64,000 bases of DNA from an archaeon. Lineage in GTDB: Archaea; Iainarchaeota; Iainarchaeia; Iainarchaeales; 1-14-0-10-31-34. The DNA lies in the NCBI GenBank assembly GCA_043815885.1, contig JBDRIL010000029.1:3249-67248 (forward strand), read 5' to 3'. The notes below the pieces were generated by a model. The model made no database searches. It was not told where the DNA came from and worked only from the letters and a program-made list of their open reading frames with translations. The translations under genes were made by a program, and so were the position numbers. Shown in pieces: positions 6,107 through 64,000 of this stretch (positions are counted from its first letter, which is position 1; each line of letters starts with the position of its first letter).

Positions 6107-9100
6107 TCACTGCACTACCTTGCCTGTAATTGCATCAATTCTCGCTTTTCTTTCCTTTCCATTTTCTTCCAGTGAAACGTAATAGAACGGCCTGTAAACC
6201 AGACTCACTTTTTTCACTATCACTGTCTTCCACATTTTCTGGAGAGACTTAATTACTTTTTCTTCAGAGAAATTAGCTTCGACTATTGAGACATTCTTTA
6301 ATTCAACCAAAGGCAATTCATTCAATGAATCAATCAATGAATGCCTTGAGTCAGGAGGAAGTTCTATCTCTCTGTTAAGGAAATAGGAGACCTTTCCCTC
6401 AGAACTAACTCTATCAACCAAACCCTTTTCAGTTAAATTGCCTAGAACTTTTTTTATTCTTGTTTCAGAGTAATTCTCTTCCTCCAGTTTTTCCTCCATT
6501 CCTTTCCTTTTAATTAAGCCAGCAAATACCTCTAACTGCTCTTCATCCAATTCCATTACCTTATTGAAGCCTCTTGATTCAATGAATTCATCATTCTTTA
6601 CGTGAATGAATTCCCCTGTAATGGCATTAATGAAACACGTAGTTGCAATGAATTCCTTGCTTTTGTTGAAGTCATTGAATGAAATCTTATAGACTGGCTC
6701 AAAAATAAGTTGAAGTTGCTTTACCTGCTCTTCCTTTCCAACCAACCCAAACCTTTTCCTTTTCCTTACCTTATTAACGATTTTCTTTGCTTCCTCTTCC
6801 TTTAATCTTAATGGAAATGAAAGAATGCTTTCCCTCTCTACCTTCTTTTCTTCCTGCTCTTTTATTCTTTCCTCTGCTTTTTCCTGTGCTTCCTTTATTA
6901 CTTCCTCTTTTTCCTTTAATTTTTCTGCAAGAACGACTCTGTCTGGTTCAATTACTGCCTTTCTTTCCTCCAATAAATCCAGTACAGAGGAAAGCATTGC
7001 CTTTGCCTTGTACTTGCTGTTCAATGAATTAATCAATTGATTGATTTTATCCATTCCTATTTCTCCATCCCTTCCTAATTCCCTGAACGCAATTTCCATT
7101 GCAAGGTTTTCCACCTGTTCCTTGCTCAGGCTTTTAACCAAAGAAATGGTTTCTGCATCCCTTCCCTCGTGCTGCGACATTCTTGGGCGGATACTCATCA
7201 CAAACGCTCTGCTTGTTTCCTCTCTCCTGTCACCAGTGAGAGCATAACCTATTGGAAGGCTTCTAATGAAATTGCTTTTCTTGTATTGGTGGGGAATGAT
7301 TGTAGGAATTCTCTTGTAAATAGCCTTTATGTCGTCATCAAAAACCAGTTTATGAGTCAAAAGAATATCCAATTGAGACAACACCCTTGTATCAATTGCT
7401 GATGGCTGCTGTGTAGCAAAAACTATACTGCAACCAGGCCTTCTTCCCTGCTTAACATACTCCACCAACGCATTTGTGGCAGGAGTATTTACATTTCCTG
7501 AAGGAATTAAGGTGTGGGCTTCATCAATAAACATCCAGGTAGGAGGAATATCTGTTTCAAGCAATGCATTCATTGAAGTAGCCTTCATTTTATTCGCTGA
7601 TTCTCTTCTAGTGGAAAGCTTTCTCGCTGAAAGAATTCTCCTTGCAAGAATTCCAATAACCAATGCAGTAACATTTGCTTCAAGAAAACTTGTATCCAAT
7701 ACAGTCAACTGGTTTTCTCTGGAGAGTTCCCCCAAAGGAGTTCCCTTTTCATCAAAGATCCCCCAGGACTTCGCTGCCTCAAACCTGCTGACTAACGCCC
7801 TAATGGAATCCTGTTTGTAGCCTCTTTCCCTGCTATTCAATTCTTCATCTGTCTCCAGACAGTTTATCATGCCATCCAGAGAAAAACCCTGCTTGTTTGC
7901 CTTAACGTATTTTCCTTCAATTGTCTTGTATCCATGCTCTACTTTTTTAATTACCTTATCCAAAAGCAAGCCGCTTGGACCAAATCTCTCCATTCCAAAA
8001 GTCAAACACCAGTCCTCTGAGGTAAGCAGTGAAGGCTGAATTGAAAAGGTTGCATCATAAGTGTTTTTTGGAGTTTCATTCTTCATTCCTGCTGGAATGA
8101 ATACCTTAAGGTTATCAAGGCCTTGAGGTTCTAACCCCCACTCAATCAATGCACTTAATTCCTTTTCTTCCTTGTTTGCATACTTCATGCTCCAGAACAC
8201 TCCAATAGGATCAATTACTACTATTCCAACATTGCTGTTTTTCAGTGCCAGTTCCTCTGCAATCACTCCAAGAACGTATGAATTATGAACAATTATATCG
8301 TTTGCAACAAAATTATAGTATTCTGGAACAGAAATATCATATACATCTTCTCCAGGAATTTCTTTTAACTCAGTTACCTCATCCCAAAAAATATCTGATT
8401 CTGCTATCATCTGTACTCCTTTATTCCCTTCAATCTGAGCCATTCTCAGTAACTTTTTTCTGGAAGGCGCGTAAGTTAAGGAACTATGGACGTAGTTTGG
8501 ATTATAACCCATTGCTCTCGAAGCAGCCTTACAATTTTTTGGTCTATAAATGCCCCAGATTTCTTTCGGAATAGTGTCTACATTTGGATTTCTTGAAACC
8601 TCAAGCATGTCTTTTATTGCATTTTCCTGTTTTAGTTCTTTTACCCCAAAAAAACCGATTTCCTGAATGAATCTGATTACACTTTCAGATGAAATAACTA
8701 ATTCAAAGGAATTGAATTTTTTCTCGTTACATTTGACTTTTTTGAACCTAAGCCTAGAGAGTATCCCAAATCTAATCAAAAGATTCTGCACTTGCCTTAT
8801 CATTTTATCTGAAGAACTAGAATAAGAAACCTGCCAATTATTTTTTCTTCTACTTATCGGATGAATACTGCCGTCACAACTGAAAAGCCTGTTCAGGAAT
8901 AATGCCAGCTGTTCTTTAGGAAGTTTTAATACTTCTTCTGGAATAACTTTCTCCTTTGTTAGCTTTCCATATAATCCAATGCTTTCAAACCATTTTGCCA
9001 GAGAACTCTTTTGCGCGACAATAAACCCTTTGCTTGTAAATTGCCCTTTTTTGTTTCTAACAACATTTGTTAAATCAATTGGTTTCTTTTTTTGTGCAAC

Positions 9101-10288
9101 TCTATAGCATCCGATTTTACTATGCACTTCTATTCTTAGGTTTTCATCAAATTCCTTTATGCTTTGGGAGAAATCTTCAAGAATTTTTTTGTCTTCGTTA
9201 CTGAATAAAACAAATGCATTTCTTAGATGCCCTTCCGCAATAAAGTAAGCCAATAACTTAATATCACACTCTCTCATCCTAGTGTTGCCAAATACATTAA
9301 GTGCCCTTGGCACTGCTATCCTGTCTTTTGCTTTTAGTTCTTGGGTTTGCATCCATCCATTAATTGTTAGGAGAGGATGTTCGGGAGTCAATTTTATTTC
9401 CCTTCCACTCCTTAACCGCAAATAAAGCAATTTGCTCACTTTTCTCTTATAAAATCCTTCTTTTTTCAATGGAACTACTTTTAGTTCATGGTTTAATCCA
9501 AGAACCCGTTTATCATTGTTTTCTAGTTCCTTTATAGGAATAACCGAGCCATCTTCCAAGGTTATCAATGAATCGCCAGTAAGGCATTTTCCACTCCCAC
9601 GAGCACCGCAAACAAACACTACATGAGGATTCAGTCCGTCAAGAAAAACCTTTTTTTTATTGTATCCCTCTTCCTCCAGCCTTCCAATCAATAATGCTGC
9701 ATCAGATCCATAATTAAGGAAAACTGATTTCTTTCTTCCAATGAATACAGATTCATTTTTCTCGTCCTCCAGAAATTGCAGAGGCATTGAATTTGCTGGA
9801 ACTTCTTCCACAAATTTTTCTTCTGGTTCAGGAGCGCCTTCCATTTCACTTATTGTTTCCCCGCGCTCTTCCTTTTCCTCTTCAACTTCTTCCTCTATTT
9901 CCTTTGTTGCAGACTTCAAAGCCTTTCTCAGAATGAGTTTCTTTAATTCATTTTTTGGAGGCAATTCCTTCTTCAATTCCTCCTCTGGTTCTTCAATGTT
10001 TTCCTCTTCTGCTTCCTCGTTTTCTTCCAATTCAATTTCCTTTTCAATTGACTTGTTTTCTTTTTTTTCCTTTGCGCCAATGCTTTTCTCAAAAGCTTCA
10101 GCTTTTGCGCCACTGCTTTTTTCAAAAGCGGTGTTTTCTTTTTCTGGCTTTATTGTCTTAATGATTTCCTCTACATGTTTTTCCTTTTTCCCGTCAAATA
10201 CCTCGTCAAATATATCCACGTCCTCCTTTACCCTGGATTTCTGTACTCTCTCTTCTGGAGAGAGTTCCCTTGGTTTTTCTTCATTCAT
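6107..10288 (-). CDS. HerA/FtsK-superfamily (DUF87-like) P-loop ATPase with an acidic low-complexity N-terminus and an intein inside Walker A
   Basis: Extein Walker A is GARGSGK|S (reconstituted across the intein). Walker B is MFIDEAH. HerA-like motif TQQPSAIDTRVLSQLDILLTHKL. The N-terminal ~220 aa are an E/K-rich linker. Confidence 0.75.
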   Translation of the reverse strand: MNEEKPRELSPEERVQKSRVKEDVDIFDEVFDGKKEKHVEEIIKTIKPEKENTAFEKSSGAKAEAFEKSIGAKEKKENKSIEKEIELEENEEAEEENIEEPEEELKKELPPKNELKKLILRKALKSATKEIEEEVEEEKEERGETISEMEGAPEPEEKFVEEVPANSMPLQFLEDEKNESVFIGRKKSVFLNYGSDAALLIGRLEEEGYNKKKVFLDGLNPHVVFVCGARGSGKCLTGDSLITLEDGSVIPIKELENNDKRVLGLNHELKVVPLKKEGFYKRKVSKLLYLRLRSGREIKLTPEHPLLTINGWMQTQELKAKDRIAVPRALNVFGNTRMRECDIKLLAYFIAEGHLRNAFVLFSNEDKKILEDFSQSIKEFDENLRIEVHSKIGCYRVAQKKKPIDLTNVVRNKKGQFTSKGFIVAQKSSLAKWFESIGLYGKLTKEKVIPEEVLKLPKEQLALFLNRLFSCDGSIHPISRRKNNWQVSYSSSSDKMIRQVQNLLIRFGILSRLRFKKVKCNEKKFNSFELVISSESVIRFIQEIGFFGVKELKQENAIKDMLEVSRNPNVDTIPKEIWGIYRPKNCKAASRAMGYNPNYVHSSLTYAPSRKKLLRMAQIEGNKGVQMIAESDIFWDEVTELKEIPGEDVYDISVPEYYNFVANDIIVHNSYVLGVIAEELALKNSNVGIVVIDPIGVFWSMKYANKEEKELSALIEWGLEPQGLDNLKVFIPAGMKNETPKNTYDATFSIQPSLLTSEDWCLTFGMERFGPSGLLLDKVIKKVEHGYKTIEGKYVKANKQGFSLDGMINCLETDEELNSRERGYKQDSIRALVSRFEAAKSWGIFDEKGTPLGELSRENQLTVLDTSFLEANVTALVIGILARRILSARKLSTRRESANKMKATSMNALLETDIPPTWMFIDEAHTLIPSGNVNTPATNALVEYVKQGRRPGCSIVFATQQPSAIDTRVLSQLDILLTHKLVFDDDIKAIYKRIPTIIPHQYKKSNFIRSLPIGYALTGDRREETSRAFVMSIRPRMSQHEGRDAETISLVKSLSKEQVENLAMEIAFRELGRDGEIGMDKINQLINSLNSKYKAKAMLSSVLDLLEERKAVIEPDRVVLAEKLKEKEEVIKEAQEKAEERIKEQEEKKVERESILSFPLRLKEEEAKKIVNKVRKRKRFGLVGKEEQVKQLQLIFEPVYKISFNDFNKSKEFIATTCFINAITGEFIHVKNDEFIESRGFNKVMELDEEQLEVFAGLIKRKGMEEKLEEENYSETRIKKVLGNLTEKGLVDRVSSEGKVSYFLNREIELPPDSRHSLIDSLNELPLVELKNVSIVEANFSEEKVIKSLQKMWKTVIVKKVSLVYRPFYYVSLEENGKERKARIDAITGKVVQ
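8282..9586 (-). mobile_element. intein (435 aa) with LAGLIDADG homing-endonuclease domain, inserted in the P-loop of the HerA-like ATPase
   Basis: Begins CLTGDSLITLEDG right after GARGSGK. LAGLIDADG blocks LLAYFIAEGH and LALFLNRLFSCDGS. Ends NDIIVHN, followed by Ser+1. Coordinates were derived by codon counting. Confidence 0.85.
10103..10138. repeat. 36-nt imperfect-hairpin repeat (TTTTGCGCCACTGCTTTTTTCAAAAGCGGTGTYTTC), in-frame within the HerA-like gene; a degenerate tandem copy lies at ~10071-10102
   Basis: Near-identical copies lie in the P0 gene at 27369-27404 and 27534-27570. On the coding (minus) strand it encodes TAFEKSSGAK. Confidence 0.8.
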
Positions 10289-10392: not shown

Positions 10393-10815
10393 ATGCGGCT
10401 CAGAAGGCTGATTCCAAGAAAAGATTATCCTACATGGAAACTAATTGCAGAAATCTGCCTAATCATAATTGTACTGATTACCCCGATAGAAATAGCCCAT
10501 TTGGTTTTTCACGTTGAAGTAGAAGAAAGGCTTCTGAGTTTTCTTGAAGTAATTGACTACCTTGCAATAATTGTTCTGTTGATTGACTTAGTGCACCATT
10601 ACCTCATAACGAAAAGAAAGGACAGATTCCTGAAAGAAAACCTGTTGCACATTCTTTCCTTTCTTCCATACATTCTATTCATCAAGGTAGCAGGAATATT
10701 CAAGATAGTAAAAGTAATCGCAACCGGCATGAGCAAAATAGTGAAAGTAAAATTCCACTCCAACGCACTAAAAGAAAGAGCCCACAAAATAATCAAAAAA
10801 GACAAGATTGAATAA
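10393..10815 (+). CDS. small integral membrane protein (hypothetical)
   Basis: 140 aa; hydrophobic helices (IAEICLIIIVLITPIEIAHLVF, LAIIVLLIDLVHHYLI). Confidence 0.45.
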   Translation: MRLRRLIPRKDYPTWKLIAEICLIIIVLITPIEIAHLVFHVEVEERLLSFLEVIDYLAIIVLLIDLVHHYLITKRKDRFLKENLLHILSFLPYILFIKVAGIFKIVKVIATGMSKIVKVKFHSNALKERAHKIIKKDKIE

Positions 10816-20706: not shown

Positions 20707-21510
20707 ATGATTGCACCTTTGCTGAATTCAATTAAATTAATGGTTTCAAAGCCATTCTTTATAGTCATAGCCTTAATTGTTGCACTGATAAACAGCTTTG
20801 TATTGTTTTTTTTCCAGGAAACATTATTCGAGTTCATCCTTTCATTAATGGATGTGAATGCCTTTCCAACCAATAACCTGTTAATACTTCCATTCCAGCT
20901 TGTTTCAATTTACTTCAATGAATTACTGATACTGTTGCTTGTATTGTTTGTATCAGTATTATTGAATGTATTTCTTTTCTTTGCTTTCGCGGATTACGTT
21001 GGAGGAATCAAAAAAAAGAAGGCTTCTTTCGGGGCTTCACTTGGGTATGCAATCAAGAGCCTTTTTGAACAAATAAAGTTAGTGGTGTTTTTTGTTGTTC
21101 TTGTTGCCTTTGGTTTCCTTGTGCTTTGGATGTTTTTTTTACTCAGTGTCTACACTGTTTTTGGCGGGATACTGCTGATTATAGCAATGCTGTTATGCAT
21201 CTATCTGGTAATAAAATTCATTTTCACTCCGGCAATAATGGCAACAGAAAAAATAAAGTTAAAGGAATCATTGAAGAAAAGCTATGAGTTTTCAGGCAAG
21301 CATTTCTTTGAAATAATTCTCCTGCTAATCGTTTTATTCATAGTAAATGCATTAGTAGAAGTAGGAATAGGATACTACATAGTTTTAGCGCAACCGGAAG
21401 AAAACTTTTTTCTGGTAATAGACTTCATCATTACACTGCTGTTAACAGCCTACTTTACCCTTTTGTTCCCTGTCTACTATCAATTGAGAGAAAAGAATGC
21501 AGGCCTCTGA
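20707..21510 (+). CDS. polytopic integral membrane protein (hypothetical)
   Basis: 267 aa, about 7 predicted TM helices; ends 14 nt before the SMC-like gene. Confidence 0.5.
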   Translation: MIAPLLNSIKLMVSKPFFIVIALIVALINSFVLFFFQETLFEFILSLMDVNAFPTNNLLILPFQLVSIYFNELLILLLVLFVSVLLNVFLFFAFADYVGGIKKKKASFGASLGYAIKSLFEQIKLVVFFVVLVAFGFLVLWMFFLLSVYTVFGGILLIIAMLLCIYLVIKFIFTPAIMATEKIKLKESLKKSYEFSGKHFFEIILLLIVLFIVNALVEVGIGYYIVLAQPEENFFLVIDFIITLLLTAYFTLLFPVYYQLREKNAGL

Positions 21511-21524
21511 AAGAGTGAAAATAA

Positions 21525-24311
21525 ATGATTAAGATTTCAAAGCTGAGGTTAAAGAATTTCAAGTCATTTACTAAAGCAACAATCCCTTTTTCAAGGGGCT
21601 TTACAGCTATTGCCGGAAGCAATGGGTCAGGGAAATCCAATATCCTTGACGCATTAATGTTTGTATTGGGGATTACCTCCCTCAAAATGCTTCGGGCATC
21701 AAAACTCACTGATTTAGTCAATCATTACAGCAAGGACAGCTATGCATTAGTGGAAATGGATTTAGCTGGAGAAGACAAGAATTACGTTATCTCCAGGGAA
21801 GTGGACAGAGAGGGAAAGAGCGTATTCAGGATGGAGGGAAAGAGAAGCAGTCTGGGAGAAATCACTTCACTCTTGAAGGAATTAGGAATTAAGGCAGACG
21901 GATACAATATCGTGGTCCAGGGAGACGTTACAAGAATCATTGAAATGAATGCCGTTCAGAGAAGGGAAATCATTGATGAATTAGCTGGAATAAGGGAATT
22001 CGATGAAAAAAAAGAGGAAGCAATAAAGGAATTAGACAAAGTGGACAGAAAGATAAGAGAGGTAATGATTGTATTAAAGGAAAGAGAAACCTACCTGAAT
22101 GAATTGCAGAGGGAAAGGGAAGCAGCATTAGAGTACCAGAACCTGAGCGGAGAGTTAAAGAAAACCAAAGCAACAATCGTGGAAAAAGAAATCGGGAAAA
22201 TAAAAAAAGAAATAAATGAATTCAACCAAAAAAAAGAGAAACTGAATGCTGAAAGGAATTCCATTGAAAAAAAATTATCCGAAATGAAATCAAGGGAAGA
22301 GGAAACCAGGAAAAAAGTAGAGGAACTGAATGAAAAGATTCTTTCAGCAAACCAGAAAACCTATGCAGGAATAGGGATTGATTTAGAGGAAGTTAAATCA
22401 GACAAGAGACTGGCAGAAGAGAAGATTAATTCAAAGAAAGAGCACATCAACGTAATGAGCAACAGGATAAATTCACTGAATGAAAAGAAAGAAGTAATCA
22501 GGGAAAAAGAAAAAGAATCAAAGAAGAGACTGCAGGAATTAAGGGAAGAAAAAAAGGAAGCAGAGAAATCACTTGAAGAAACAGAGAAGTCCGCCGGAAT
22601 AAAAGCAAATTTCACTGAATTAAGGGCATCCCTAAACAGGGCAGAAAAGGGGCTGGATGAATGCCTGAATGAATTAAATGAAGGAAAGGAATCCTTCTAC
22701 CAGAGGAAATCTGAAATAGGCTCCTTGGCAAAAGAAATCGGGAATGCAGAAAAAATCCTGGAAGAATTAAAGGAAAACAAGGCAGCAAAGGAATTAAAGG
22801 AAAAAAGCGAAAAAATAAAGAAAGCAATAAAGAAAATGAATGAAGTCGAAGAAGAAATAAAAAAACTGAATAAAAAAATCAATTCAAAGGAACTGAATGA
22901 AAGAATCAAGGAATTAAGGCAGGCAAGGGAAAGAATACTGAAAGAAATGAGCGAAGTAATTGATCTGGCAAGAGAGGCCGGAGGAATGAGAAAAGAGGAA
23001 ACAGTGGAGGCAGAGAAAAAGAAAAGCCAAAAGGAATTAAAGAAATCAGAAGAAGCAAGGGAAGCATTGAACAATACGATTAAGAAACTAGAGAAAGAAA
23101 AAGGGAAACTGGAAGAAGAAACAAAGAAATTAAGGAATGTATTGATGGAGGAAAACGAGGCAATAGAGGGACTGAATGAATTAAGGAACAAATTAAAGGA
23201 AATTTCCTTGAATGAGGATTCAATTGAGAATTCATTGAAAGATAAAAAGAATTCAGTAAGTGAAATAGAGAAAGAAATAGAGGAATCAATGAAGGAAGTT
23301 GATTCACTGGAAGAAGGAATAAAGAAGGAAGAAAAAAGAACTGAGGAATTAAACAAAAGAATAAGGGAACTGAATATTGAACTGGAAAAACAAAGCCAGG
23401 AAAGCAAGCATTTTTATGAAGACAAGGAAAGAGAACAAAAGAGCCTTGAATCAATAAATGAAAGAATAACAATATATGAAGAAAAAATAGGTAAACTGGG
23501 AAAGGAAGAAAATGTGCTGGAAATAGAGAACTCAAAGAACGAAGTAAGGATAACTGACTTGGAAGAAGAGAAAAAGGAGTTTGAAGGAATTGAATTATTG
23601 GAAGGAGTTGAATTAGCTGAATTAAAGCAATCCCTTCCTGAAATAGAGAAAAACATAACCAAGCTTGGAGCAATAAACATGAAGGCAATTGATTCCTTTA
23701 ATGTGTTTGCCGAAGAATTACTTGAAATAAAGAATAAGGCAGAGAAATTAGAGCAGGAAAGGATTGCAGTGCTTGAAATGATTGACAAGATTGAAGTAAA
23801 AAGAATCAATGTCTTTAATGAATGCTTTAATCAAATAAATTCAAACTTCAATAAAATGTATTTCTCCCTGGCTGAAGGAGAGGGAAAGCTGAAGTTAAGT
23901 GATGAAAATAATCCATTGGATTCAGGATTGCTTATTGAAGCAAGGCATGTAGCAGAAAAAGTGAAGGGAATTGATTCCATGAGCGGGGGAGAAAAAAGTT
24001 TAACTGCATTAGCCTTTTTGTTTGCAATCCAGCTCTACCAGCCTGCCCCGTTTTATTTCTTTGATGAATCCGATGCAGCACTGGATAAACCGAATTCAAT
24101 AAAGATGGCCAGAATGATTAAAGAAATATGCAGGAAAAACCAGTTTATCGCCATTACTCACAATGACACACTCATAAAGGAATCCGACCAAATAATTGGT
24201 GTAGCCTTAAACGAACAAAAAAGCTCGGTAATAGGATTAAAGCTAAAGGAAGAAATAGAAAAAGAATTAAAAGAAACAAAAACAGAAGAAATAAAGGAAA
24301 CAATAAATTAA
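21525..24311 (+). CDS. SMC-family ABC-type ATPase with long coiled-coil, apparently lacking a hinge domain
   Basis: N-terminal Walker A (AGSNGSGKSNILDALMFVLG). SMC-typical VVQGDVTRIIEMNAVQRREIIDELAGI. C-terminal signature MSGGEKSLTALAFLFAI and Walker B FYFFDESDAALD. 928 aa. The middle is continuous K/E heptad coiled-coil with no Gly-rich hinge and no CxxC zinc hook. Confidence 0.75.
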   Translation: MIKISKLRLKNFKSFTKATIPFSRGFTAIAGSNGSGKSNILDALMFVLGITSLKMLRASKLTDLVNHYSKDSYALVEMDLAGEDKNYVISREVDREGKSVFRMEGKRSSLGEITSLLKELGIKADGYNIVVQGDVTRIIEMNAVQRREIIDELAGIREFDEKKEEAIKELDKVDRKIREVMIVLKERETYLNELQREREAALEYQNLSGELKKTKATIVEKEIGKIKKEINEFNQKKEKLNAERNSIEKKLSEMKSREEETRKKVEELNEKILSANQKTYAGIGIDLEEVKSDKRLAEEKINSKKEHINVMSNRINSLNEKKEVIREKEKESKKRLQELREEKKEAEKSLEETEKSAGIKANFTELRASLNRAEKGLDECLNELNEGKESFYQRKSEIGSLAKEIGNAEKILEELKENKAAKELKEKSEKIKKAIKKMNEVEEEIKKLNKKINSKELNERIKELRQARERILKEMSEVIDLAREAGGMRKEETVEAEKKKSQKELKKSEEAREALNNTIKKLEKEKGKLEEETKKLRNVLMEENEAIEGLNELRNKLKEISLNEDSIENSLKDKKNSVSEIEKEIEESMKEVDSLEEGIKKEEKRTEELNKRIRELNIELEKQSQESKHFYEDKEREQKSLESINERITIYEEKIGKLGKEENVLEIENSKNEVRITDLEEEKKEFEGIELLEGVELAELKQSLPEIEKNITKLGAINMKAIDSFNVFAEELLEIKNKAEKLEQERIAVLEMIDKIEVKRINVFNECFNQINSNFNKMYFSLAEGEGKLKLSDENNPLDSGLLIEARHVAEKVKGIDSMSGGEKSLTALAFLFAIQLYQPAPFYFFDESDAALDKPNSIKMARMIKEICRKNQFIAITHNDTLIKESDQIIGVALNEQKSSVIGLKLKEEIEKELKETKTEEIKETIN

Positions 24312-24312: not shown

Positions 24313-26694
24313 TTATTTCTTTTTGCTTGGTTTTTTCTTTTTTACTTTTTCTATTTGTTTTTCTTCCTTGATTAGACTGATTATTTCGTCTGCTGAAGGG
24401 ATTTTTTCGTCTTTTAATTCCTTTTCCGCCTGTTCGGCCCGCTTCTTTAGCTTGAATTCATCTAATTTGTATTTATCCAGTGCCTTTTTGTAGTCTTCTC
24501 CTGTAATCAACTTTTTTTCCTTCAGTATTTTTAGGTCTCTCAGTGATTTTTCCCTTGCTGAAAATTCCACTCTCAATCTATCGATTTCAATTGCATGCTT
24601 GGACCTGAAACTTATTTCTTTATTCAGTACATCCATTTGTTTCTTGTATCTTGCCATGAGTTCATCGTGCTTTTCTTCGCTTATCTTTCCATCTGAAAAA
24701 GCAGTATCAATCCTTCTCTGCAATGACATCAATCTGTGCAGTTGCCCTTCCAGGGAATACTTCTTCTTTGAATAAACTCTTGTAAGAATGACTGCTTCCA
24801 TCATTACAATGAATAAAAGGATAACGAACAGGGAAATGACTCTTGCAAACGCCTGCTGGTCAAAGGCTTCAGTGAACTGGTATTTCTTTTCTAATTGAGG
24901 AAGGCCTCCCTCAGTAACATAGTCTTCCGGAGAGAATTGCTCATAATAAATGTAAATCTCTTTAGAGACACTGAAAAGGTTTTCTGCCAAGAGAACGAGA
25001 TTAAAACCGCTCTTGGCTTGTTCTATTGCCTTGCTTCCATAGCCTTCATTGTAATAGAATTCAGAGGAATTATAGTAGTATTTTGCATGGTCCAAATAAA
25101 GCCTGCCCCAGACAAACTTTCTTATTCCCTTTTTTTCTTTCTCCATTTCCCCTTCCAGATAATCAATTTTTTCCTTTAGCATTGAATGTATTTCACTGAA
25201 GTCCTTGTCCTTTAATTTAATATAGGAATCAATTAAAGCAAAGGAAGAAGCTGAATCAAATGCAGTGGCTAAATACCATCCCATTTCCTGTTCTTTTTTT
25301 GCTGCATTAAGCCTTCTCTCTGCATCCCCTAATTCGTCTCCTTCAGCTATACTTAACCCGTTTTCAGAATTAACAATGTAATTGCTTGAGAAGTCCTTGA
25401 ATGCGTCATCCTTCCTTACCTTTGCATTACTTTCAGTGGTTCTTGCATGGAATTCCCTTGATGCCTCAAACCATGCAACAGCAAATTCATATTCCTGAAT
25501 TTTTTTTATTGTTTCAGCTTCACTTATTTCTCCAGTGGTTACATCAACAACTAAAGTCTTTTCTCCGGTTATTTCATCTATGTTATTCATTGCCCATGCA
25601 AGCCTCTGCTGGGCCGCGATATGCCATTCAATTAAATCAATTGGAACAGTCATGTCAAGATTGGTTTTAAGGCCCTGGATATTCTTTCTCAAGTCATTTA
25701 CTTTCAGCTTGAATACCTCTGAATCAGATTGAAGCAATGAAGGATTATCTGCAATATCCTTTACCATTGAAGCATAAACCTTTGCAATAAATGCATTGTT
25801 TGCTGCAGAATACAGGTAATTGTTTTCAAACATTGCCTCTGTTTCCTGAAGGCTTTGTTCTGCCAGATTAAGTGTTGAAAGAAGGAATGAGATTTCAGCC
25901 TGGTCTTCTATTGCAGTGGTTTCCATTGACTTTCTTGCTTGCTCTATTTTTACCTTGGTTTCCTCTATAATGTTCGCAGTTATTTCATGCATTGGCCTTA
26001 GCTCTTCCACAAAGGCTGTTGGTTCCGGAGAGAATTGTTTTTCTGGAACTGCCCCTTTATTAATGTCAATCTCCTCCCAATCAGAAAACGCGATTTCCAG
26101 TACCTCATCAATTGAATCAACTTCAACCACCTTTATCCCCCATTCCTCAAAAGCGTGGTCAATCAGGTTAATGTTTTTCACTGAACCTTCTTCCCTGATG
26201 ATTTGCTTTGCCTCCCCTTTTGGAATCATGAATAAGGTTATTCCTTCCTCTGAAGCCTTTCTTGTTTTCTGGAAGACGCCTCCAACACTTCCCACTCTGG
26301 CGGCCTCTGTAACAGTTCCAGTAATGGATACCTCGCCGCTTAAAGGCAAGTCCTTGAGCATTGAAATCGTAAGCAATGCCATTGCTGCTCCAGCACTGGG
26401 GCCTTCAACAGCAGAAGCACTTGAATCAATATCAAATAAGTAATCATATTTATCCACTCCATCAAAGTAATTCTTTGAAACCCTTACTGCAGTCTTTTCA
26501 GCACTCTGGGTAGTGGTTCCAACCAATGGAGTTAAATTACTCCAAATCTCTCCAGTGCCGGGAATAATATTCAAATACAAATCAGCTACAACAGGATTTC
26601 CATCAGAGGTAATTGCAAAAATCTTCATATGCCCTTTAGGAAGAACCGCGAAAGCATTCACTGAAAACAGTAAAAGCAAAAACCAGTAAAACAA
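24313..26694 (-). CDS. secreted, membrane-anchored S16 (Lon-type) peptidase-domain protein with a cytoplasmic SHOCT-like coiled-coil tail
   Basis: Signal peptide (MFYWFLLLLFSVNAFA). Lon proteolytic domain motifs (EGPSAGAAMALLTISML...GGVFQKTRKA) with no AAA+ Walker motifs. One TM helix (FARVISLFVILLFIVMMEAVILT). C-terminal GKISEEKHDELMARY and LITGEDYKKALDKY SHOCT-like motifs. Confidence 0.65.
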   Translation of the reverse strand: MFYWFLLLLFSVNAFAVLPKGHMKIFAITSDGNPVVADLYLNIIPGTGEIWSNLTPLVGTTTQSAEKTAVRVSKNYFDGVDKYDYLFDIDSSASAVEGPSAGAAMALLTISMLKDLPLSGEVSITGTVTEAARVGSVGGVFQKTRKASEEGITLFMIPKGEAKQIIREEGSVKNINLIDHAFEEWGIKVVEVDSIDEVLEIAFSDWEEIDINKGAVPEKQFSPEPTAFVEELRPMHEITANIIEETKVKIEQARKSMETTAIEDQAEISFLLSTLNLAEQSLQETEAMFENNYLYSAANNAFIAKVYASMVKDIADNPSLLQSDSEVFKLKVNDLRKNIQGLKTNLDMTVPIDLIEWHIAAQQRLAWAMNNIDEITGEKTLVVDVTTGEISEAETIKKIQEYEFAVAWFEASREFHARTTESNAKVRKDDAFKDFSSNYIVNSENGLSIAEGDELGDAERRLNAAKKEQEMGWYLATAFDSASSFALIDSYIKLKDKDFSEIHSMLKEKIDYLEGEMEKEKKGIRKFVWGRLYLDHAKYYYNSSEFYYNEGYGSKAIEQAKSGFNLVLLAENLFSVSKEIYIYYEQFSPEDYVTEGGLPQLEKKYQFTEAFDQQAFARVISLFVILLFIVMMEAVILTRVYSKKKYSLEGQLHRLMSLQRRIDTAFSDGKISEEKHDELMARYKKQMDVLNKEISFRSKHAIEIDRLRVEFSAREKSLRDLKILKEKKLITGEDYKKALDKYKLDEFKLKKRAEQAEKELKDEKIPSADEIISLIKEEKQIEKVKKKKPSKKK

Positions 26695-27218: not shown

Positions 27219-28502
27219 TTATTTCTTCTCCTTTTTTTTGGTTTCTTTCTTTTCTACTGGTTTCTCTTCTTTCTTGGGTTTCTTTTTTGCTTCTTCTTTT
27301 TTTCCAGTCTTTTTTTCTTCCATCTTTGGTTTCTCTTCTTTCTCTTTTTCTTCCTTTGGTTCCTCTTCTTTTGCGCCACTGCTTTTTCTAAAAGCGGTGT
27401 CTTCTTTCTTTGGTTTTTCCTTTGCTTCTTTTTCTTCAACTTTAGGTTTTTCTTTTATTTCTTTTTTCTCCTCGCCTTTCTTCTCTTCTGGCTTCTCCTC
27501 TTTTTTTGGGTCTTCCTCGGGTTTCTTTTCTTCTTTTGCGCCACTGCTTTTTTCAAAAGCGGTGTCTTCCTTTTTCTCTTCTTTAGAGTCTTCTTTCTTT
27601 TCTTCAGCTTTCTCTTCTTTGGCTTCCTTTTTTTCCTCTTTAGATTCTTTTGTTGCTTCGGGTTCCTTCACCATTGATTTCAGTGAATCTGCCTGAAGGT
27701 TTGCCTTTCCGAGAAGATTGCTGATTGTTTCCTTGTTGAAGATTTCTGCATCCAATGCAACACTAAGGGAATCCCTGTATGCCTTGGACAAAAACAGCTT
27801 TATTGTGTCTTCATTAGTGTAATAAATATTTAAAGCCAGATTGAGTGAATTCCTGTAGGCTTGCTGGAAGTCACTGAACAGCTCGTCTATATCAATGTCC
27901 ATTACTTCTGCCTTGAATATCTCTCCCTTTTCATATACTGCAATTACATTTAATCCAACCTTTATTGGCTTAATATTCAGTTTCTGGAGAGTGCCTGAAA
28001 CAACCTTTGAGATTTCTTCTCCTTTCCTGCATACAGTCTTGTCTTCTGAAATAAAGATTGAGCTTCCCTGAATCCTTACCTTTAATCCTGCTCCCTTTAA
28101 GTCACTTAGTGCAGGGCCTGGAGGCAAACCAGTATCTCCTGCAGGAACAAGGATATCATCAGGGGCAATTATTCCGGGTTTTGCTGAAACCCTTCCTTTA
28201 TTCTTTTTAATTAAAGCATAGAGTTCAAATGGATTCATTTGAGTGAAGATTATTGCAACTGAGCCTTTAACTTCTTCAAGCAATTTGCTTTCCTTTAGCT
28301 TTGATTCCTTTAATGCATTTAGTATTACTCTGGTTTTGGAAACCTTTATTACTGCTTTATCATGCAATAACTTCCTTATGTCCTGGAAGAGGTTGGCTGG
28401 AAATCCAGTAATATCAGCTACAGCAATAACCGGATAACTCTCAATTAACTGTTTTAATTCAGTTACTTCCTTTTTCTTCCATTCAGTTGTATGACGGGTC
28501 AT
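27219..28502 (-). CDS. rplP0: ribosomal stalk protein aP0 (uL10) with an expanded K/E-rich C-terminal tail
   Basis: uL10 N-domain (VIAVADITGFPANLFQDIRKLL). The tail of ~150 aa is K/E repeats carrying two copies of EDTAF(E/R)KSSGAKEE and ends KKEKK rather than GLGALFG. Confidence 0.85.
   Translation of the reverse strand: MTRHTTEWKKKEVTELKQLIESYPVIAVADITGFPANLFQDIRKLLHDKAVIKVSKTRVILNALKESKLKESKLLEEVKGSVAIIFTQMNPFELYALIKKNKGRVSAKPGIIAPDDILVPAGDTGLPPGPALSDLKGAGLKVRIQGSSIFISEDKTVCRKGEEISKVVSGTLQKLNIKPIKVGLNVIAVYEKGEIFKAEVMDIDIDELFSDFQQAYRNSLNLALNIYYTNEDTIKLFLSKAYRDSLSVALDAEIFNKETISNLLGKANLQADSLKSMVKEPEATKESKEEKKEAKEEKAEEKKEDSKEEKKEDTAFEKSSGAKEEKKPEEDPKKEEKPEEKKGEEKKEIKEKPKVEEKEAKEKPKKEDTAFRKSSGAKEEEPKEEKEKEEKPKMEEKKTGKKEEAKKKPKKEEKPVEKKETKKKEKK
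27369..27404. repeat. 36-nt hairpin repeat copy in the P0 tail (encodes DTAFRKSSGAK)
   Basis: TTTTGCGCCACTGCTTTTTCTAAAAGCGGTGTCTTC; 35/36 identical to 27534-27570 and 10103-10138. Confidence 0.8.
27534..27570. repeat. 36-nt hairpin repeat copy in the P0 tail (encodes DTAFEKSSGAK)
   Basis: TTTTGCGCCACTGCTTTTTTCAAAAGCGGTGTCTTCC. Confidence 0.8.
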
Positions 28503-31203: not shown

Positions 31204-34200
31204 ATGAAGTGTCCTTATTGCGGGAGTGAAGAAAGCAAGGTTGTGGATAAGAGGGAAACAGATGATTTGGTTAGCAATAGAAGGAGGAGAGAGTGCCTTA
31301 AGTGCAGTAAAAGGTTCACTACATATGAAAGAATTGAAAGGATTGAATTGAATGTAGTGAAAAAGGATGGAAGAAGGGAAGCATTCAATAGGGAGAAACT
31401 GATTACTGGGATAACTAAAGCATGCGAGAAAAGGCCTGTTGGAAGGGAAAAAATTGAAGCAATAGTGAATGAAATTGAATCAGAACTGCTTCAAAGAAAG
31501 GAGACAGAAATTCCTTCAAGAGAGATTGGAGAACTGGTAATGCAGAGACTGAAGAAACTGGATGAGGTTGCATTCATTAGGTTTGCTTCAGTGTACAAGA
31601 CTTTTACTGATGTAGCTGAATTTGAGAGAGAGCTGAAAAATTTAAAGGTTGTAGAGGAAAAGTCCTCAGGAGATTCTACAGATATATTGCTGCAAGTGGC
31701 TACTCATGCAGCTGGATCCACAATTGGGTGGAGAAGGAGCAGGATAACTGAAGCATTAATGAAGGAAGCTGATTTAAGCAAGGACAATGCAGAAGAAATC
31801 GCCCAGTCAGTTGAAAAAAAGGTTTTTGCTTCAGGAATAAAGACTATTTCTGTTTCACTGATAAGGGAATTAGTGGATAATGAATTGTTTGTTAGGGGAT
31901 ATGAGAAGAAGCTGGAGAAACAGGGATTAATTGGAATGCCTTCCTATAATTTGAATCAATTAATCTATAACATGAGTCTGGAGAACAGCAATGTTCGTTC
32001 AAACAGCCCTGAAGCAATTAATTTAGCGATTGCAGAGAATGCATTAAAGCAGTATGCTTTAAGAGAGATATTTTCGAAAGAAGTATCCAATGCTCACTTA
32101 AAGGGAGCACTGCATTTGCATGACTTGGGTTATCCTATCCGCGTGTATTGTTCAGCGCATTCGCTTGAATTCATTAAAAAATATGGTTTAAGGCTGATCA
32201 ATCTTTCAACTGCATCTACCCCGGCAAAACACGCCCATACTTTAACTGGGCACTTGAATACATTTCTTGCCTCAATGCAGGCATACTATGCTGGAGCATT
32301 AGGAATAAGTTTTGTGAACGTATTCTATGCCCCTTACTTTGTCGGAGCCGACTACAAGGAAATGAGACAGCAAGCACAATACCTTATTTTTTCGTGTTCA
32401 CAGAATGCATTCTCTAGAGGCGGACAATCACTTGTTCCTGAGGAAACAATCTGGGTAAAGGAAGGAGAGAAATTAAAGCAAGCAGGGATAGGGGAATTGG
32501 TTGATGAATTTATTGAATTGGATGAGAGAAAGGAAGAATTAATTGACGGGACAGAGATAAGCAGGAACAACTTCAAGGGAATTGAAGCAATTTCCTTTGA
32601 CGAGGAAGGAAAGATTAGCTGCAAGAAGATAAGTGCTTTTGCAAGGATTCCATTCAAGGGAAAAATCTATTCAATTACCACGAATAAAGGAGAAGTGAAG
32701 GGAGTTACTGGAAGCCATTCAGTGTTTGTATGGAATGGAAGGAAATTTGAAGCAAAAAAGGCAGAAGAGTTGAGGAGAAATGATTACATTGTAACTGCTT
32801 TAAAGGCAAAAGGATTAGTGGGAGAAAGGAATGAACTGGATTTAATTGAATTTTATTTGAACAGGAAGGAAGCAGAAAACGAGGTAAGGGTCTATGATAC
32901 AGAGGAAAGATTCAAGAAGGCATTAATGGAGAGATACGGAAGAAGTTTCTATAAGGAATTTGAAAAAGATACTGGAGTTAAAGCTGAATGCGTTAGGAGC
33001 AATTGGTTGAGATACAAAAAAATTCCGTTAAAGTATTACTTTGAGTTTGTTGGAAACCCCGAAGAAGAAAAACTGATTTACAAGGGAGACAGCCAGACAG
33101 TGTTTCCAGCAAGAAGCAAGGTAACTAAAAGTCTAGTGAAATTGCTTGGATATTATGTGAGTGAAGGACACAATAGTCTGAGAAGCAGAAGCTTTATTGC
33201 AGTAAGCAATAAGGAAGAAAAATTCATTGAGAGCGTGAAGGAATGCCTGAATGAATTGAGTTATCATTACATAGTGAATGAAAATAAAAGGAATGGAGTG
33301 AAAACAGTTGTAATTCAAGGCATTCTTGCAAAAATCATTAGTGATTTAGGGGAAGAGGAAAATGGAGTGAAGAAGATTCCATTCATTATTTATAATGCAT
33401 CAAAGGAATTGCAGAAAGAATTCCTGAATGCATTCCATGAAGGAGATGGATTAAAGAGAAGGAACAGTTATGCAATAGCAAATACCTCTGAAAATGTAGT
33501 GAATGGAATCTCGCTTCTTATGGCAATGAATGAAAAAGACTTCCATTTATTCAAGAGAACTTATGCGAATGAAAAATGGAAGCCTTGCTATGAATTAAGG
33601 GAATCATTAATGGATAACAGGGTAATAGACCACAAAATAAGCAGGGAATTAATTGGAAGAAAAGGGTTTAGAAAGGAATTAAAGAATTTGAGTGCTGACA
33701 TTGAAAGCAAAGGAGGAACAAAAACTCAACAAATTCAGTTGCTTCAAATGTTAATGGAAGCAGAGGTTGGGTTTGCAAGAATAAAGGAAATCAATACCTG
33801 TGATTATGAGGGATTTGTTTATGATGTAAGTGTTCCGGGAAATGAATCATTTTTAGGAGGCACTGGATTAATCTTCTTCCATAACACTCTATTTATCGAT
33901 TTTAATATTCATTTAGGGATTCCTGAATTTTTGAAAAAGGTTCCGGCAATCGGTCCAGGAGGAAAGTATACTGGAAAGACTTATGAAGAGTATGAAAAGG
34001 AAGCTCAATTGTTTGCTAAGGCTTTAATGGATGTATGGAGAGAAGGAGACGGAGATGGAAAGCCTTTTCCTTTCCCTAAACTGGATCTGCACGTTAATCA
34101 GGAAAGCTTTGACGATCCAAGACAGTTTGAGTTATTGAAGTATGCTTGCTTGATTTCTTCAGAGAATGGAGCTCCTTACTTTGCATTTGACAGGGATGCA

Positions 34201-35085
34201 GTGAATTTATCCATGTGCTGCAGGTTAAGGACAAAGTTAACTGATACTTATGTTTTAGAGCATCCTGAAAGCATTAGGTATTGTGGTTTTCAGAATGTTA
34301 CAATTAATTTGCCTCAGGCTGCTTACAGGGGAGGAAAAGGAAATATAGAGAAGTGCATTGAGGAAGTAAGGAATACAATGGATTTGGCAATGAAGGCTCA
34401 TTTAGAGAAAAAGGAATTCATTTCCACTTTAATGAAGGAAAACGGTCCTTTATGGCAGGTGGGAAAAGTCTCTCCTGATGGAATTCCTTACCTGGACTTA
34501 GATAAAGCTACTTATATTATTGGATTGATTGGATTGAATGAATGCGTTAAGCACTTAATTGGAAAGGAACTGCATGAATCAGATGAAGCATTCAAGCTGG
34601 GATTAAAGATAATTTCTGCAATGAATTTAAAGACAAAGGAACTGGAAAAAGAGACAGGGCTTAGAGTTGCATTAGAGGAAAGTCCGGCTGAATCAGCTTC
34701 ATTGAGGCTGGCGAGAGTTGATTTAAAGGAGTTTCCTGAAAGCAAGGAATATGTGAGAGGAAACAAAGAAACAAGGGAAGTGTATTACACTAATTCAATC
34801 CATCTCACTCCTGATGCTCCAGTGAGCATTAGTGAGAGAATTGAAAAGCAGGGAAAGTTTAATCCATTAATTGAGTCAGGAGCAATAACCCATGTATTCT
34901 TAGGAGAACAAAGGCCAGAACCAGAGGCAATACTTAATTTAGTGAAAAAGACATGGGAGAACACTCAAAGCGACCAAATAGTTATCTCTCCTGAATTCAC
35001 TGTGTGTGATGACTGCAACAGAGTAAGCCCTGGCTATAAAAGAAAGAATTTAGGAGGTAATCGAAATGAAAGAAAAAGAAGTTGA
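31204..35085 (+). CDS. nrdD: NrdR-like repressor (Zn-ribbon + ATP-cone) fused to class III anaerobic ribonucleoside-triphosphate reductase NrdD, interrupted by an intein
   Basis: Residues 1-~148 look like full-length NrdR (MKCPYCGS...[46 protein letters not shown]), continuous with the NrdD body. The main frame ends [11 protein letters not shown]... with no glycyl-radical motif. Confidence 0.8.
32428..33885 (+). mobile_element. intein (486 aa) with LAGLIDADG homing endonuclease, in NrdD after ...FSRGGQ
   Basis: Block A is [13 protein letters not shown] (Ser1). Block B is [17 protein letters not shown] blocks [10 protein letters not shown] and [10 protein letters not shown]. Blocks F/G are [24 protein letters not shown], followed by Thr+1. 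Confidence 0.85.
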
Positions 35086-35224
35086 AGCTGTCTGCCCTCA
35101 CTGCGGAAGCAAGAATGTATACGGAATAAGCAGGGTAGTGGGATATTATTCAGTAATAAATAACTGGAATAAAAGCAAACAGGCAGAATTTTCTGACAGA
35201 CAGAAAGGAGACTATTCATTGTGA
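35066..35224 (+). CDS. small ORF (52 aa) encoding the NrdD C-terminal Zn-ribbon half and glycyl-radical motif (RVVGYYS)
   Basis: Read by hand: [52 protein letters not shown]. It is preceded by a GGAGGT Shine-Dalgarno 8 nt upstream, is in the +1 frame, and overlaps the nrdD stop by 20 nt. It is below the ORF-track size cut-off. Confidence 0.65.
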
Positions 35225-35229
35225 GTTGA

Positions 35230-35481
35230 ATGAATGCAAAAATTTTCTGGAAAGAAGGCTGTCCAAATTGCCCGGCAGCAAAAGAGTTAGGAAAGAAACT
35301 GGAAGAAAAAATTAAAGTAGAGTATCTGAATATAGAGGAAGTGGATGGATTGGCTGAAGCTTCTTTTCACGGAGTAATGAGCACTCCAACACTGATTGTA
35401 CTGGATGAAAATGAAAAAGTATTAAAGCAATGGAACGGAGAAGTTCCAAAAGAAGAAGAAATAAAAGAACTGATTAAATGA
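35230..35481 (+). CDS. thioredoxin/glutaredoxin-like redoxin (CPNC active site; NrdH-like)
   Basis: WKEGCPNCPAAK active site and thioredoxin-fold motif MSTPTLIV. Confidence 0.75.
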   Translation: MNAKIFWKEGCPNCPAAKELGKKLEEKIKVEYLNIEEVDGLAEASFHGVMSTPTLIVLDENEKVLKQWNGEVPKEEEIKELIK

Positions 35482-36206
35482 ATGGAATCGAGATTGTTGG
35501 AATCCAGAAGAATTCCTTGATTGATTATCCTGGAAAAATTGTTTCAACTGTTTTCCTGAATAAATGCACGTTTAGATGCCCTTTCTGCCACAATCCGGAA
35601 TTAGTATTGAATACTGATTCCAACAGAATTAAGGCAGAGGAATTAATTGAATTTTTAGAGAAAGAGAAAAAATGGATTGACGGAATCTGTCTTACTGGTG
35701 GAGAGCCAACACTGCATGAAGCTTTACCTGAATTCATTTCCAGAGTAAAGGAAAAAGGTTTTTTGGTTAAGCTTGACACGAATGGAACCAATCCAGTAAT
35801 GCTGAAAGAATTAATTGAAGGAAAGAAGCTAGATTACATTGCAATGGACATTAAAGGCCCTTTAGAGAGATATGAAGAAATTGTGAAAAGCAAGGTGAAT
35901 GAAAAAGCAATTCAAGAGAGTATTGAATTAATCAGGAATTCAGGAATTGAGTATGAGTTCAGGACAACAGTTGTTCCGGAAATATTCTTGGATGGAGATG
36001 AAGAAAGAATTGGAGAATGGCTGAAAGGAAGCAAAAAATATGTATTGCAGCAATTCAATAATGAACACAAATTATTGGATCATTCATTCCAGCACCTGCA
36101 AGCTTTTTCTCCGCAAAAAATGCAGGAAATAAAAGAAAAAATGAATCCCTATTTCGAGAAAGTGGAATTAAGAGGGGTTCCAACTGCATTGAAGAAGGAA
36201 AATTAA
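35478..36206 (+). CDS. nrdG: anaerobic ribonucleotide reductase activating protein (radical SAM)
   Basis: CTFRCPFCHN (CxxxCxxC) radical SAM cluster motif; gene context. Confidence 0.8.
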   Translation: MNGIEIVGIQKNSLIDYPGKIVSTVFLNKCTFRCPFCHNPELVLNTDSNRIKAEELIEFLEKEKKWIDGICLTGGEPTLHEALPEFISRVKEKGFLVKLDTNGTNPVMLKELIEGKKLDYIAMDIKGPLERYEEIVKSKVNEKAIQESIELIRNSGIEYEFRTTVVPEIFLDGDEERIGEWLKGSKKYVLQQFNNEHKLLDHSFQHLQAFSPQKMQEIKEKMNPYFEKVELRGVPTALKKEN

Positions 36207-59968: not shown

Positions 59969-60231
59969 CTATTAAAGAATTAGAAAAAAAAGTTGCAGAG
60001 CTGGAAATCAAGGTAGGTTTTGATAACCGATTGAAAGGGATAGAAAATAAACTTTTAGATTTGGACAAAAAATTTAGTGAACATAAAAAAAGTTGGATGG
60101 AAAAAGTCACATTAAAAAGTTTAGTAGATTGGACTTCAAAAAATGTAAGGGATTTATCAATCCAAATAATAATAACAATAATAATAGCAATAATAGTTTT
60201 CTTGATATCTATTTCTTCAATAAAAATTTGA
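59959..60231 (+). CDS. small coiled-coil protein with C-terminal TM helix
   Basis: 90 aa; overlaps the previous ORF's stop. Confidence 0.4.
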   Translation: MAMTIKELEKKVAELEIKVGFDNRLKGIENKLLDLDKKFSEHKKSWMEKVTLKSLVDWTSKNVRDLSIQIIITIIIAIIVFLISISSIKI

Positions 60232-60244
60232 AAAAAAACTGATT

Positions 60245-60832: not shown

Positions 60833-60851
60833 TTAATTAATTATTGTTGTT

Positions 60852-61973: not shown

Positions 61974-62034
61974 AATAAATCACCTTATACCAATTTCGGT
62001 ATATACAATATAGGGCATAACCTTTTTAAAGGTT

Positions 62035-62053
62035 TCGGTATATTGGTATATTT
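62035..62053. repeat. 19-nt direct repeat TTTCGGTATATTGGTATAT (second exact copy 62199-62217; partial copy 61996-62006)
   Basis: Brackets the RHH ORF, immediately upstream of the transposase start. Confidence 0.7.
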
Positions 62054-62054
62054 T

Positions 62055-63967: not shown

Positions 63968-64000
63968 TTTTTTGACTTCGTAGTTAAAGTTTATTACTCA

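Follow-up and report, generated by a model that had tools for sequence, protein, structure and literature searches.

Can an SMC ATPase do without both of the modules that are known to join such proteins at the tips of their arms? This question is raised by a gene found in a 64,000-nucleotide stretch of DNA, hereafter the window, which corresponds to positions 3,249 to 67,248 (forward strand) of contig JBDRIL010000029.1 from an archaeon of the Iainarchaeota (assembly GCA_043815885.1). The gene encodes a protein with the ATPase heads and long coiled-coil arms of the SMC family (structural maintenance of chromosomes), and it directly follows, on the same strand, a gene encoding a polytopic membrane protein. 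Our results indicate that, in this DPANN archaeon of Diapherotrites/Iainarchaeota type, the gene probably encodes the SMC ATPase of the chromosome (condensin type), with neither the hinge of canonical SMC proteins nor the zinc hook of Rad50.

The heads of the window protein carry the motifs that an earlier note, made from the sequence alone, had recognized as SMC-like. Walker A (G31-S38), the Q-loop (Q132), the signature (S820-K824), the Walker B/D-loop (D847-D854, within F843-D854) and H879 are all present, and G31, N33, G36, K37, Q132, S820, G822, E823, the D847-D854 segment and H879 are invariant in 116 relatives. Pfam SMC_N matches residues 4-900 at E=2.6e-41. With curated models, the archaeal-type SMC model TIGR02169 gives 557 bits and TIGR02168 gives 432 bits, as compared to 55-104 bits for Rad50 models (cut-offs 700-1087), 60 bits for RecN and 82 bits for the archaea-specific SMC-related protein (ASRP) model NF045487 (cut-off 300), which the SMC models outscore five- to sevenfold. 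The PADLOC defence models mad3, LmuB and JetC reach 166, 83 and 43 bits, respectively. The best solved structures are likewise Pyrococcus Smc heads, matched over residues 4-287 at 2e-98 and over residues 724-913 (5xns) at 8e-85, vs. 1e-16 for Rad50. In the AlphaFold2 (AF2) model, obtained from an alignment of 116 relatives with a mean predicted local distance difference test (pLDDT) of 79.9, the N-terminal head half is predicted with a pLDDT of 84-97, mostly above 90. When this model is searched with Foldseek, the top matches are condensin Smc4 and the P. yayanosii Smc head with its coiled coil and joint (5xei), and the ScpA-bound Smc head 5xns is matched with a TM-score (TMt) of 0.84 and a root mean square deviation of 3.3. 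These results show that the heads belong to the SMC type, their similarity to SMC being far higher than that to the Rad50, ASRP or defence families. The comparison with archaeal SMC-like families that the earlier note had suggested thus turns out in favour of SMC itself.

Between the heads, the absence of both apex modules that had been proposed is borne out by several methods. Pfam SMC_hinge (PF06470) gives no match in the window protein at E<=0.1, while canonical archaeal SMCs, used as a positive control, match it at 6e-34 and 4e-27. With a hinge hidden Markov model (HMM) derived from ten canonical SMCs, the window protein scores -2.2 bits, and hhalign gives a probability of 0.06% when the middle part of the window subclade is aligned with the hinge alignment; no cryptic hinge is thus detected by profile search. 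As for the zinc hook, the window protein has three Cys and no CxxC, and the hhalign probability between the middle part of its subclade and the hook profile of its relatives is 1%.

Structure prediction for a hinge or hook was among the checks proposed in the earlier note. In the AF2 model, the whole stretch from residue 156 to residue 783 is helical and contains no beta strand. The ~600-aa middle had been described as an uninterrupted coiled coil. Coiled coil it is, but it is not strictly uninterrupted, as the model contains six short helical breaks (357-359, 417-418, 449-454, 485-487, 687-696 and 715-720). The arms are antiparallel and symmetric, with ~290 aa per strand, and they fold back at loop 449-454. 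The apex is placed there because the two strands are then of equal length and because this loop aligns with the apex of the relatives: it is an alignment gap opposite their hook, at the same place as the hinge in canonical SMCs. The sequence of the apex loop is variable within the window subclade, in which a conserved helix break (485-487) is found ~30 residues past it, and the break at 687-696 is the joint loop of the descending strand. In the subclade alignment, the neck and joint are conserved up to about residue 320 on the ascending strand, and ~150 aa out from the head on both strands, a pattern that would be expected if a kleisin still binds, as we infer.

What stands at the apex varies among related proteins. 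The best 120 homologues of the window protein come from metagenome-assembled genomes (MAGs) labelled Candidatus Diapherotrites, Ca. Iainarchaeum, 'archaeon' or, occasionally, Micrarchaeota, and the hinge is missing from all of them. Among the 117 relatives analysed, 96 have one mid-protein CPxC, located near residue 488 of ~1000 or near residue 393 of ~806. The 21 others, a group to which the window protein belongs, have no CPxC; they are 905-942 aa long and 38-90% identical to the window protein, and locus L095 provides a further hook-less example. An apex profile made from a 76-aa segment of 28 hook-bearing relatives matches, over 75 residues and with E=1.7e-12, the zinc hook of P. furiosus Rad50 (1L8D, 6ZFF), followed by RING fingers (E>=0.002) and coiled coils (E>=0.03). 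Pfam Rad50_zn_hook matches three relatives at 5e-4 to 8.5e-6, two of these three (P0071 and P0012) above the curated cut-off. The usual SMC of the clade thus consists, judging from both the hook-structure and the Pfam matches, of SMC heads and arms with a genuine Rad50-type hook at the apex. Four relatives (P0107, P0108, P0024 and P0115; e.g., L087:10001-14617) also contain LAGLIDADG inteins within the Walker A loop (GK|C...HN|SN), their precursors being 1206-1540 aa long.

When 1.84 billion cluster representatives were searched exhaustively with phmmer, this family came out in the top ranks, which were sorted by the hinge HMM and a CxxC test. The family consists of 43 clusters within ranks 1-44, rank 43 being the first canonical SMC (P0161). 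The apex is a hook in 32 of these clusters, neither hook nor hinge in 10, and a canonical hinge in a single one (P0146). Below the family are mostly hinge-bearing SMCs of canonical length, with 29-42% identity, among which fragments, hinge-bearing forms of lesser length and a few proteins without an apex module are interspersed. Proteins outside the core family (P0180, P0197, P0236, P0162, P0182/P0188/P0216, etc.) include SMCs of 838-1084 aa with neither hinge nor CxxC, as well as short hinge-bearing SMCs of ~800-840 aa; the gene context of one of the peripheral hook-less proteins, P0162, is unrelated. The variation of SMCs in apex and arm length exceeds the canonical picture. Within the family, the arm span, measured between fixed head landmarks, takes three tightly clustered sizes, with a median of 465 aa in the short hook-bearing class, 575 aa in the hook-less class and 650 aa in the long hook-bearing class. 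From the short to the long hook class, each strand gains ~93 aa, a step close to both the 91-aa functional length period and the ~99-aa superhelical period of the arms of B. subtilis Smc (Burmann et al. 2017, PMC5344682).

The position of the gene in the genome points to a housekeeping SMC. The same gene block is found in nine longer loci (the window, L001, L002, L004 and L084-L088), in the order L44e (often), membrane protein, SMC on the same strand, convergent Lon_C protease, and then P1, P0, L1, L11, Spt5, SecE and FtsZ. The stretch from SMC to Lon is variable in this block, as PPase, OGG, MgtC, PALP, M48 and rotamase genes are inserted. The hinge-bearing family member P0146 (L089:5188-8226), a 1012-aa protein with a canonical hinge at residues 426-601 (E=4e-46), has its gene flanked by those of L44e and Lon_C, within the block that also holds the hinge-less members. 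Its heads are 48-52% identical to those of family members, and it falls within the family in 39 out of 50 neighbour-joining (NJ) bootstraps. As it occupies the same locus, the family can be regarded as the positional counterpart of the housekeeping SMC. The hinge of P0146 shares 35-38% identity with the canonical hinges closest to it, a divergence similar to that of the heads (35%), which fits vertical hinge retention; P0146 could represent either a retained ancestral state or a module re-exchange. With an outgroup of mostly bacterial SMCs, collected by a genome-contig scan with universal SMC motif patterns, the family and five archaeal canonical SMCs are set apart from bacterial SMCs in 36 out of 40 NJ bootstraps, and head identity is 35% between the family and archaeal SMCs vs. 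40% among archaeal SMCs. On these grounds, we argue that the family descends from an ordinary archaeal SMC of which the apex module alone has changed.

How the apex changed was approached by Fitch parsimony on bootstrapped NJ trees, according to which the hook is ancestral among the family members sampled. In 80 out of 80 replicates, 4-8 hook losses are counted, and the hook-less proteins are monophyletic in none of 60 replicates; outside the deleted tip, no residue-level synapomorphy uniting them was found. Given the weak deep nodes and the use of NJ only, more than one hook loss is no more than likely. One possible scenario is that the ancestor of the family had a hinge, which would have been exchanged for a hook coming from a Rad50 gene, and that the hook module (~37 aa per strand) would have been deleted later, possibly more than once. 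Hinge (rare), Rad50-type hook (in most members) and neither (in the window lineage) appear to form a natural series at one locus.

The gene preceding SMC is the other constant element of the locus. The earlier note had taken its product for a seven-span membrane protein co-oriented with SMC; it is indeed polytopic and co-oriented, but hydropathy and inspection by eye give six clear hydrophobic spans and, at most, a weak seventh one. It has a weak GPDPase_memb/DUF7847-like similarity, the match to PF10110 (6e-07) being just under the cut-off, and one of its loops (aa 175-204) is conserved. The 14-nt distance between the two genes was correct, both open reading frames (ORFs) being exactly as given, and this purine-rich spacer has no space for a separate promoter. 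The two genes are probably co-transcribed. Homologues of the membrane protein, with 25-40% identity and HMM E-values of 3e-38 to 2e-56 for three of them, are directly upstream of SMC and on the same strand in all 11 family loci with upstream sequence (the window, L001, L002, L004, L084, in which one gene is inserted, L085-L088, L094 and L095), two of which were found through the membrane protein search. As the stretch from SMC to Lon is variable, the membrane protein-SMC pair is tighter than general synteny. No membrane protein gene is directly upstream of SMC at the P0146 locus (n=1). A homologue search with the membrane protein gave, apart from the query itself, a single relative (87%), such a low number of matches being due to a family too divergent for the word index, and a metagenome scan with the membrane-protein alignment gave 4 loci. 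The membrane proteins that lie beside canonical smc in Micrarchaeota, Methanothrix and Marsarchaeota are not homologous to that of the window; at L008, L011 and L016, the canonical smc loci from these three groups, an M50-type membrane peptidase is encoded upstream and a 339-354-aa membrane protein downstream. As a constant companion of both hook-type and hook-less forms, the membrane protein may tether or regulate the complex, a role that is speculative.

How could such a protein work? It may still act as an ATP-driven, DNA-organising SMC. Its two heads would engage on ATP, DNA would be clamped on the engaged heads, and arms of tuned length would transmit the ATPase cycle. Instead of a dedicated apex domain, the subunits could be held together by head engagement, by arms that pack side by side as a rod, and by a yet-unseen kleisin. 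A bolder proposal, to which we give limited credence, is that the sub-lineage runs its chromosomal SMC without any constitutive apex dimerisation domain, the arms being joined by head engagement, by arm zipping or by a partner, possibly the membrane protein.

Several points weigh against the gene being a hinge-less and hook-less chromosomal SMC. In model organisms, apex dimerisation is needed for the function of both SMC and Rad50. The tip shows, in the window subclade, neither a conserved motif nor a raised hydrophobicity suggestive of a dimer interface. The putative order from hinge to hook to neither comes from NJ trees with weak deep nodes, and P0146 is nested rather than basal in most replicates. 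The SMC scores of the window protein do not reach the equivalog cut-offs (557 vs. 729 bits for TIGR02169, 432 vs. 567 bits for TIGR02168), a shortfall that the missing hinge and the shorter arms would yield, and PGAP names the protein only 'AAA family ATPase', the sole label that its relatives receive from automatic annotation too. Finally, the partners expected for a condensin are missing from the locus, in line with what the earlier note had stated for Mre11, ScpA and ScpB. An ScpA HMM, the seed of which was taken from the smc-scpA operon of L010, detects no ScpA among all ORFs of the 64-kb window and in five related loci, and a database search gave 21 ScpA matches, none attributable to the clade. 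ScpB and Mre11 are not seen in the gene tables of related loci or among the window ORFs annotated with Pfam, i.e., ~26 out of ~65, the ribosomal, pyrimidine-biosynthesis and ribonucleotide-reductase ORFs having been read by eye instead. In L010, a canonical SMC locus from another archaeon, scpA is immediately downstream of smc, and the missing scpA neighbour is thus a real difference in gene order, within the scope of the locus.

Some of these points could be accounted for if the gene encoded a specialised SMC paralogue, which would take part, along with the membrane protein, in a different transaction involving DNA or membranes, while another part of the genome would encode a canonical Smc-ScpAB. 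The pairing with the membrane protein in 11 out of 11 family loci, the lack of a nearby kleisin according to the ScpA HMM, the score under the SMC equivalog cut-off and a view of the genome restricted to the window would all agree with this explanation, which we nevertheless find unlikely: the presence of hinge-bearing P0146 at the same locus points to orthology, the head identity to other archaeal SMCs is within the inter-phylum range, and none of the best 120 homologues, including those from MAGs labelled Diapherotrites, has a hinge. That the protein is instead a Rad50-like ATPase of double-strand-break repair with a decayed hook is suggested by the genuine Rad50-type hook of its relatives and by the HerA-like ATPase gene lying ~11 kb upstream, but is very unlikely, given that Rad50 models score so far below SMC models, that the signature and Walker B are of SMC type and that the best structures are Smc heads with an SMC joint. 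In addition, no gene encoding Mre11/metallophosphatase or NurA is found beside the SMC gene in the nine long Pfam-annotated loci or the annotated part of the window.

The hook-less gene might also be in decay and no longer functional, or result from an error of assembly, since the only known dimerisation module is missing and the tip has no conserved motif. This hypothesis is highly improbable and largely refuted by the intact 928-codon ORF, by the presence of all family-invariant head motifs, by the neck/joint conservation that has been kept, and by the finding of the same architecture, with the same range of lengths and identities as above, in at least 21 proteins from independent assemblies. 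The earlier note had favoured a non-canonical or defence-associated module over the housekeeping SMC. An anti-plasmid or anti-phage SMC-like module of Lamassu or Wadjet type, with the adjacent membrane protein as its effector, would fit the weak PADLOC matches of the window protein. However, these scores are three to thirteen times under the SMC score, no LmuA or JetA/B/D-like partners are present, and the membrane protein, the Lon-like protease and the winged helix-turn-helix (wHTH) protein encoded nearby give no significant defence match, the sole PADLOC match among neighbours being a marginal one of the wHTH protein to PDC-S02 (E 0.006, 13.6 bits). Moreover, the locus is fixed clade-wide beside ribosomal protein genes rather than patchy. 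With SMC-type heads, a conserved housekeeping block and P0146 at the same locus, the defence proposal is not supported and is extremely unlikely, contradicted as it is by the genomic context. We therefore retain the chromosomal SMC with neither hinge nor hook as the probable identity of the gene product, the coordinates of which are given below together with those of its neighbours.

Table 1. Coordinates, in the 64,000-nt window, of the SMC gene, its parts and the genes around it.
Feature	Position (nt)	Strand	Basis
Polytopic membrane protein gene, 267 aa	20707..21510	+	ORF list
Spacer aagagtgaaaataa, 14 nt, from membrane protein stop codon to SMC start codon	21511..21524	+	Sequence read
Hinge-less and hook-less ATPase gene of the SMC family, 928 aa; MFH1545029.1 at NCBI, 'AAA family ATPase'	21525..24311	+	
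N-terminal ATPase head half, aa 1-170; Walker A G31-S38 at nt 21615-21638, R57, Q-loop Q132	21525..22034	+	Invariant alignment columns
Ascending (N-terminal) coiled-coil strand, aa 156-448	21990..22868	+	AF2 helices 156-356, 360-416, 419-448
Apex loop NKKINS, aa 449-454	22869..22886	+	AF2 loop, pLDDT<50
Descending (C-terminal) coiled-coil strand, aa 455-745	22887..23759	+	AF2 helices 455-484, 488-686, 697-714, 721 onward
C-terminal ATPase head half, aa 746-908; signature SGGEK at nt 23982-23996, Walker B/D-loop F843-D854 at nt 24051-24086, H879	23760..24248	+	
Convergent membrane-anchored protease, 793 aa, Lon_C domain only	24313..26694	-	Pfam Lon_C 2e-12
Winged-helix protein, 272 aa	19132..19950	-	Conserved near SMC gene
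Ribosomal stalk genes P1, P0, L1	26884..29179	-	Translations; Pfam-named counterparts in related loci

Among these neighbours, the Lon_C protease gene is convergent with SMC, the two stop codons being 1 nt apart. The protease has a long helical C-terminal part, S16 is its sole protease domain, and its counterparts, 39-49% identical in L001 and L002, are found in every longer family locus. The wHTH protein gene is located 1-4 kb upstream of SMC, on the opposite strand, in 7 out of 9 loci (E 5e-77 to 5e-102), and its product is 38-48% identical in relatives. This protein matches no Pfam family; it starts with a MarR/PadR-like winged helix, continues with a helical part and has an alpha/beta domain at its C-terminus. 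Its single-sequence model has a pLDDT of 65.7, the fold search gives MarR/PadR-like N-terminal matches only, and residues 155-230 show a marginal match to Sulfolobus PCNA3 (E=0.04) in a PDB profile search. It was considered as a candidate kleisin and rejected as a demonstrable one, as its hhalign probability against ScpA is 0.1% and its fold matches are MarR/PadR-like only. The P0 stalk protein (27219-28502, - strand) has an unusually long, Lys/Glu-rich C-terminal extension, with two copies of 'KKEDTAF(E/R)KSSGAKEE', and a K-rich C-terminal end instead of the usual stalk tail.

Other regions of the window were also inspected. The HerA-like (DUF87/HerA_C) ATPase gene (6107-10288, - strand) encodes 1393 aa and is split by an intein with a LAGLIDADG endonuclease. 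Among its neighbours scanned with Pfam, i.e., the downstream ORF and three out of five upstream ones, no NurA, Mre11 or Rad50 domain is found, ORFs 4883-6100 and 10393-10815 being outside the scan, and the upstream neighbour at 12434-14083 matches no Pfam family. The region 31204-36206 (+ strand) contains a 1294-aa ORF with a zinc-ribbon-like motif at its start, followed by two ORFs which, read by eye from their translated starts, encode a glutaredoxin-like protein and a radical-SAM activase; these genes resemble a cluster for an anaerobic ribonucleotide reductase, into which there may have been an insertion. The end of the window (60000-64000) has a GC content of 0.30 vs. ~0.37 elsewhere and contains a DDE transposase gene of insertion sequence type (60852-61973, - strand), along with several small ORFs without family match; it is possibly a mobile-element insertion.

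When compared to known systems, the window protein resembles most closely, by its heads, the Smc of Smc-ScpAB (Pyrococcus Smc, PDB 5XEI/5XNS/4I99), with which it shares the head fold, the ATPase motifs, the neck/joint and long antiparallel arms of discrete length, and whose hinge-bearing form is represented, in a relative, by the P0146 orthologue at the same housekeeping locus. It differs from Smc by the lack of a hinge, by arms of ~290 vs. ~330 aa per strand, by the lack of an adjacent scpA and by its sub-cut-off score. With Rad50/SbcC, the coiled-coil ABC ATPase architecture is shared and the apex of the relatives is homologous to the archaeal Rad50 hook, whereas the heads are of SMC type, Mre11 is not found nearby and the window protein has no CxxC. 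RecN, MukB, JetC and LmuB also have coiled-coil arms and a non-canonical or minimal apex dimerisation, but head-level similarity to RecN, JetC and LmuB is weak, and their partners and contexts are different.

ASRPs form a clade apart from SMC and, in other phyla, are found either beside SMC or in its place. The window protein scores far lower with their model than with those of SMC. They (ClsN/coalescin, Sph1/2) are hinge-less archaeal members of the SMC superfamily, most of which have a zinc hook (Yoshinaga et al. 2022, PMC9389158); they are similar to the window protein by the lack of a hinge and to its relatives by the zinc hook. The closest parallel to the relatives is an engineered one: B. 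subtilis Smc in which the hinge is replaced by the P. furiosus Rad50 zinc hook supports normal growth (Burmann et al. 2017, PMC5344682) and, conversely, Rad50 tolerates an SMC hinge replacing its hook (Tatebe et al., PMC6969161). Like the Smc(Zn-hook) chimera, the relatives of the window protein combine SMC heads and arms with a Rad50-type CPxC hook at the apex, and the difference in arm length between their two hook classes amounts to about one period. Unlike the chimera, they are natural and clade-wide, and the window protein itself lacks the hook as well, its function in this state being presumed. Our literature search for an SMC with a zinc hook in DPANN, Diapherotrites or Iainarchaeota found no description in the searchable literature, and neither was the series of hinge, hook and neither at one locus found there.

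The role of the SMC hinge has long been debated, the hinge being viewed as a DNA gate, as a mechanical element or as a mere dimeriser. The clade studied here appears to be a natural counterpart of the hinge/hook swap experiments. If the bolder proposal of an SMC without any constitutive apex dimerisation domain were true, a closed hinge or hook would not be essential for SMC function in vivo, and the apex module, whether it is a hinge, a Rad50 hook or nothing, would behave as a cassette that nature has exchanged repeatedly. The sequences of this clade are thus suited to asking whether apex dimerisation is needed in DNA loading and loop extrusion, how arm length is tuned, and whether a membrane protein can be a partner of SMC.

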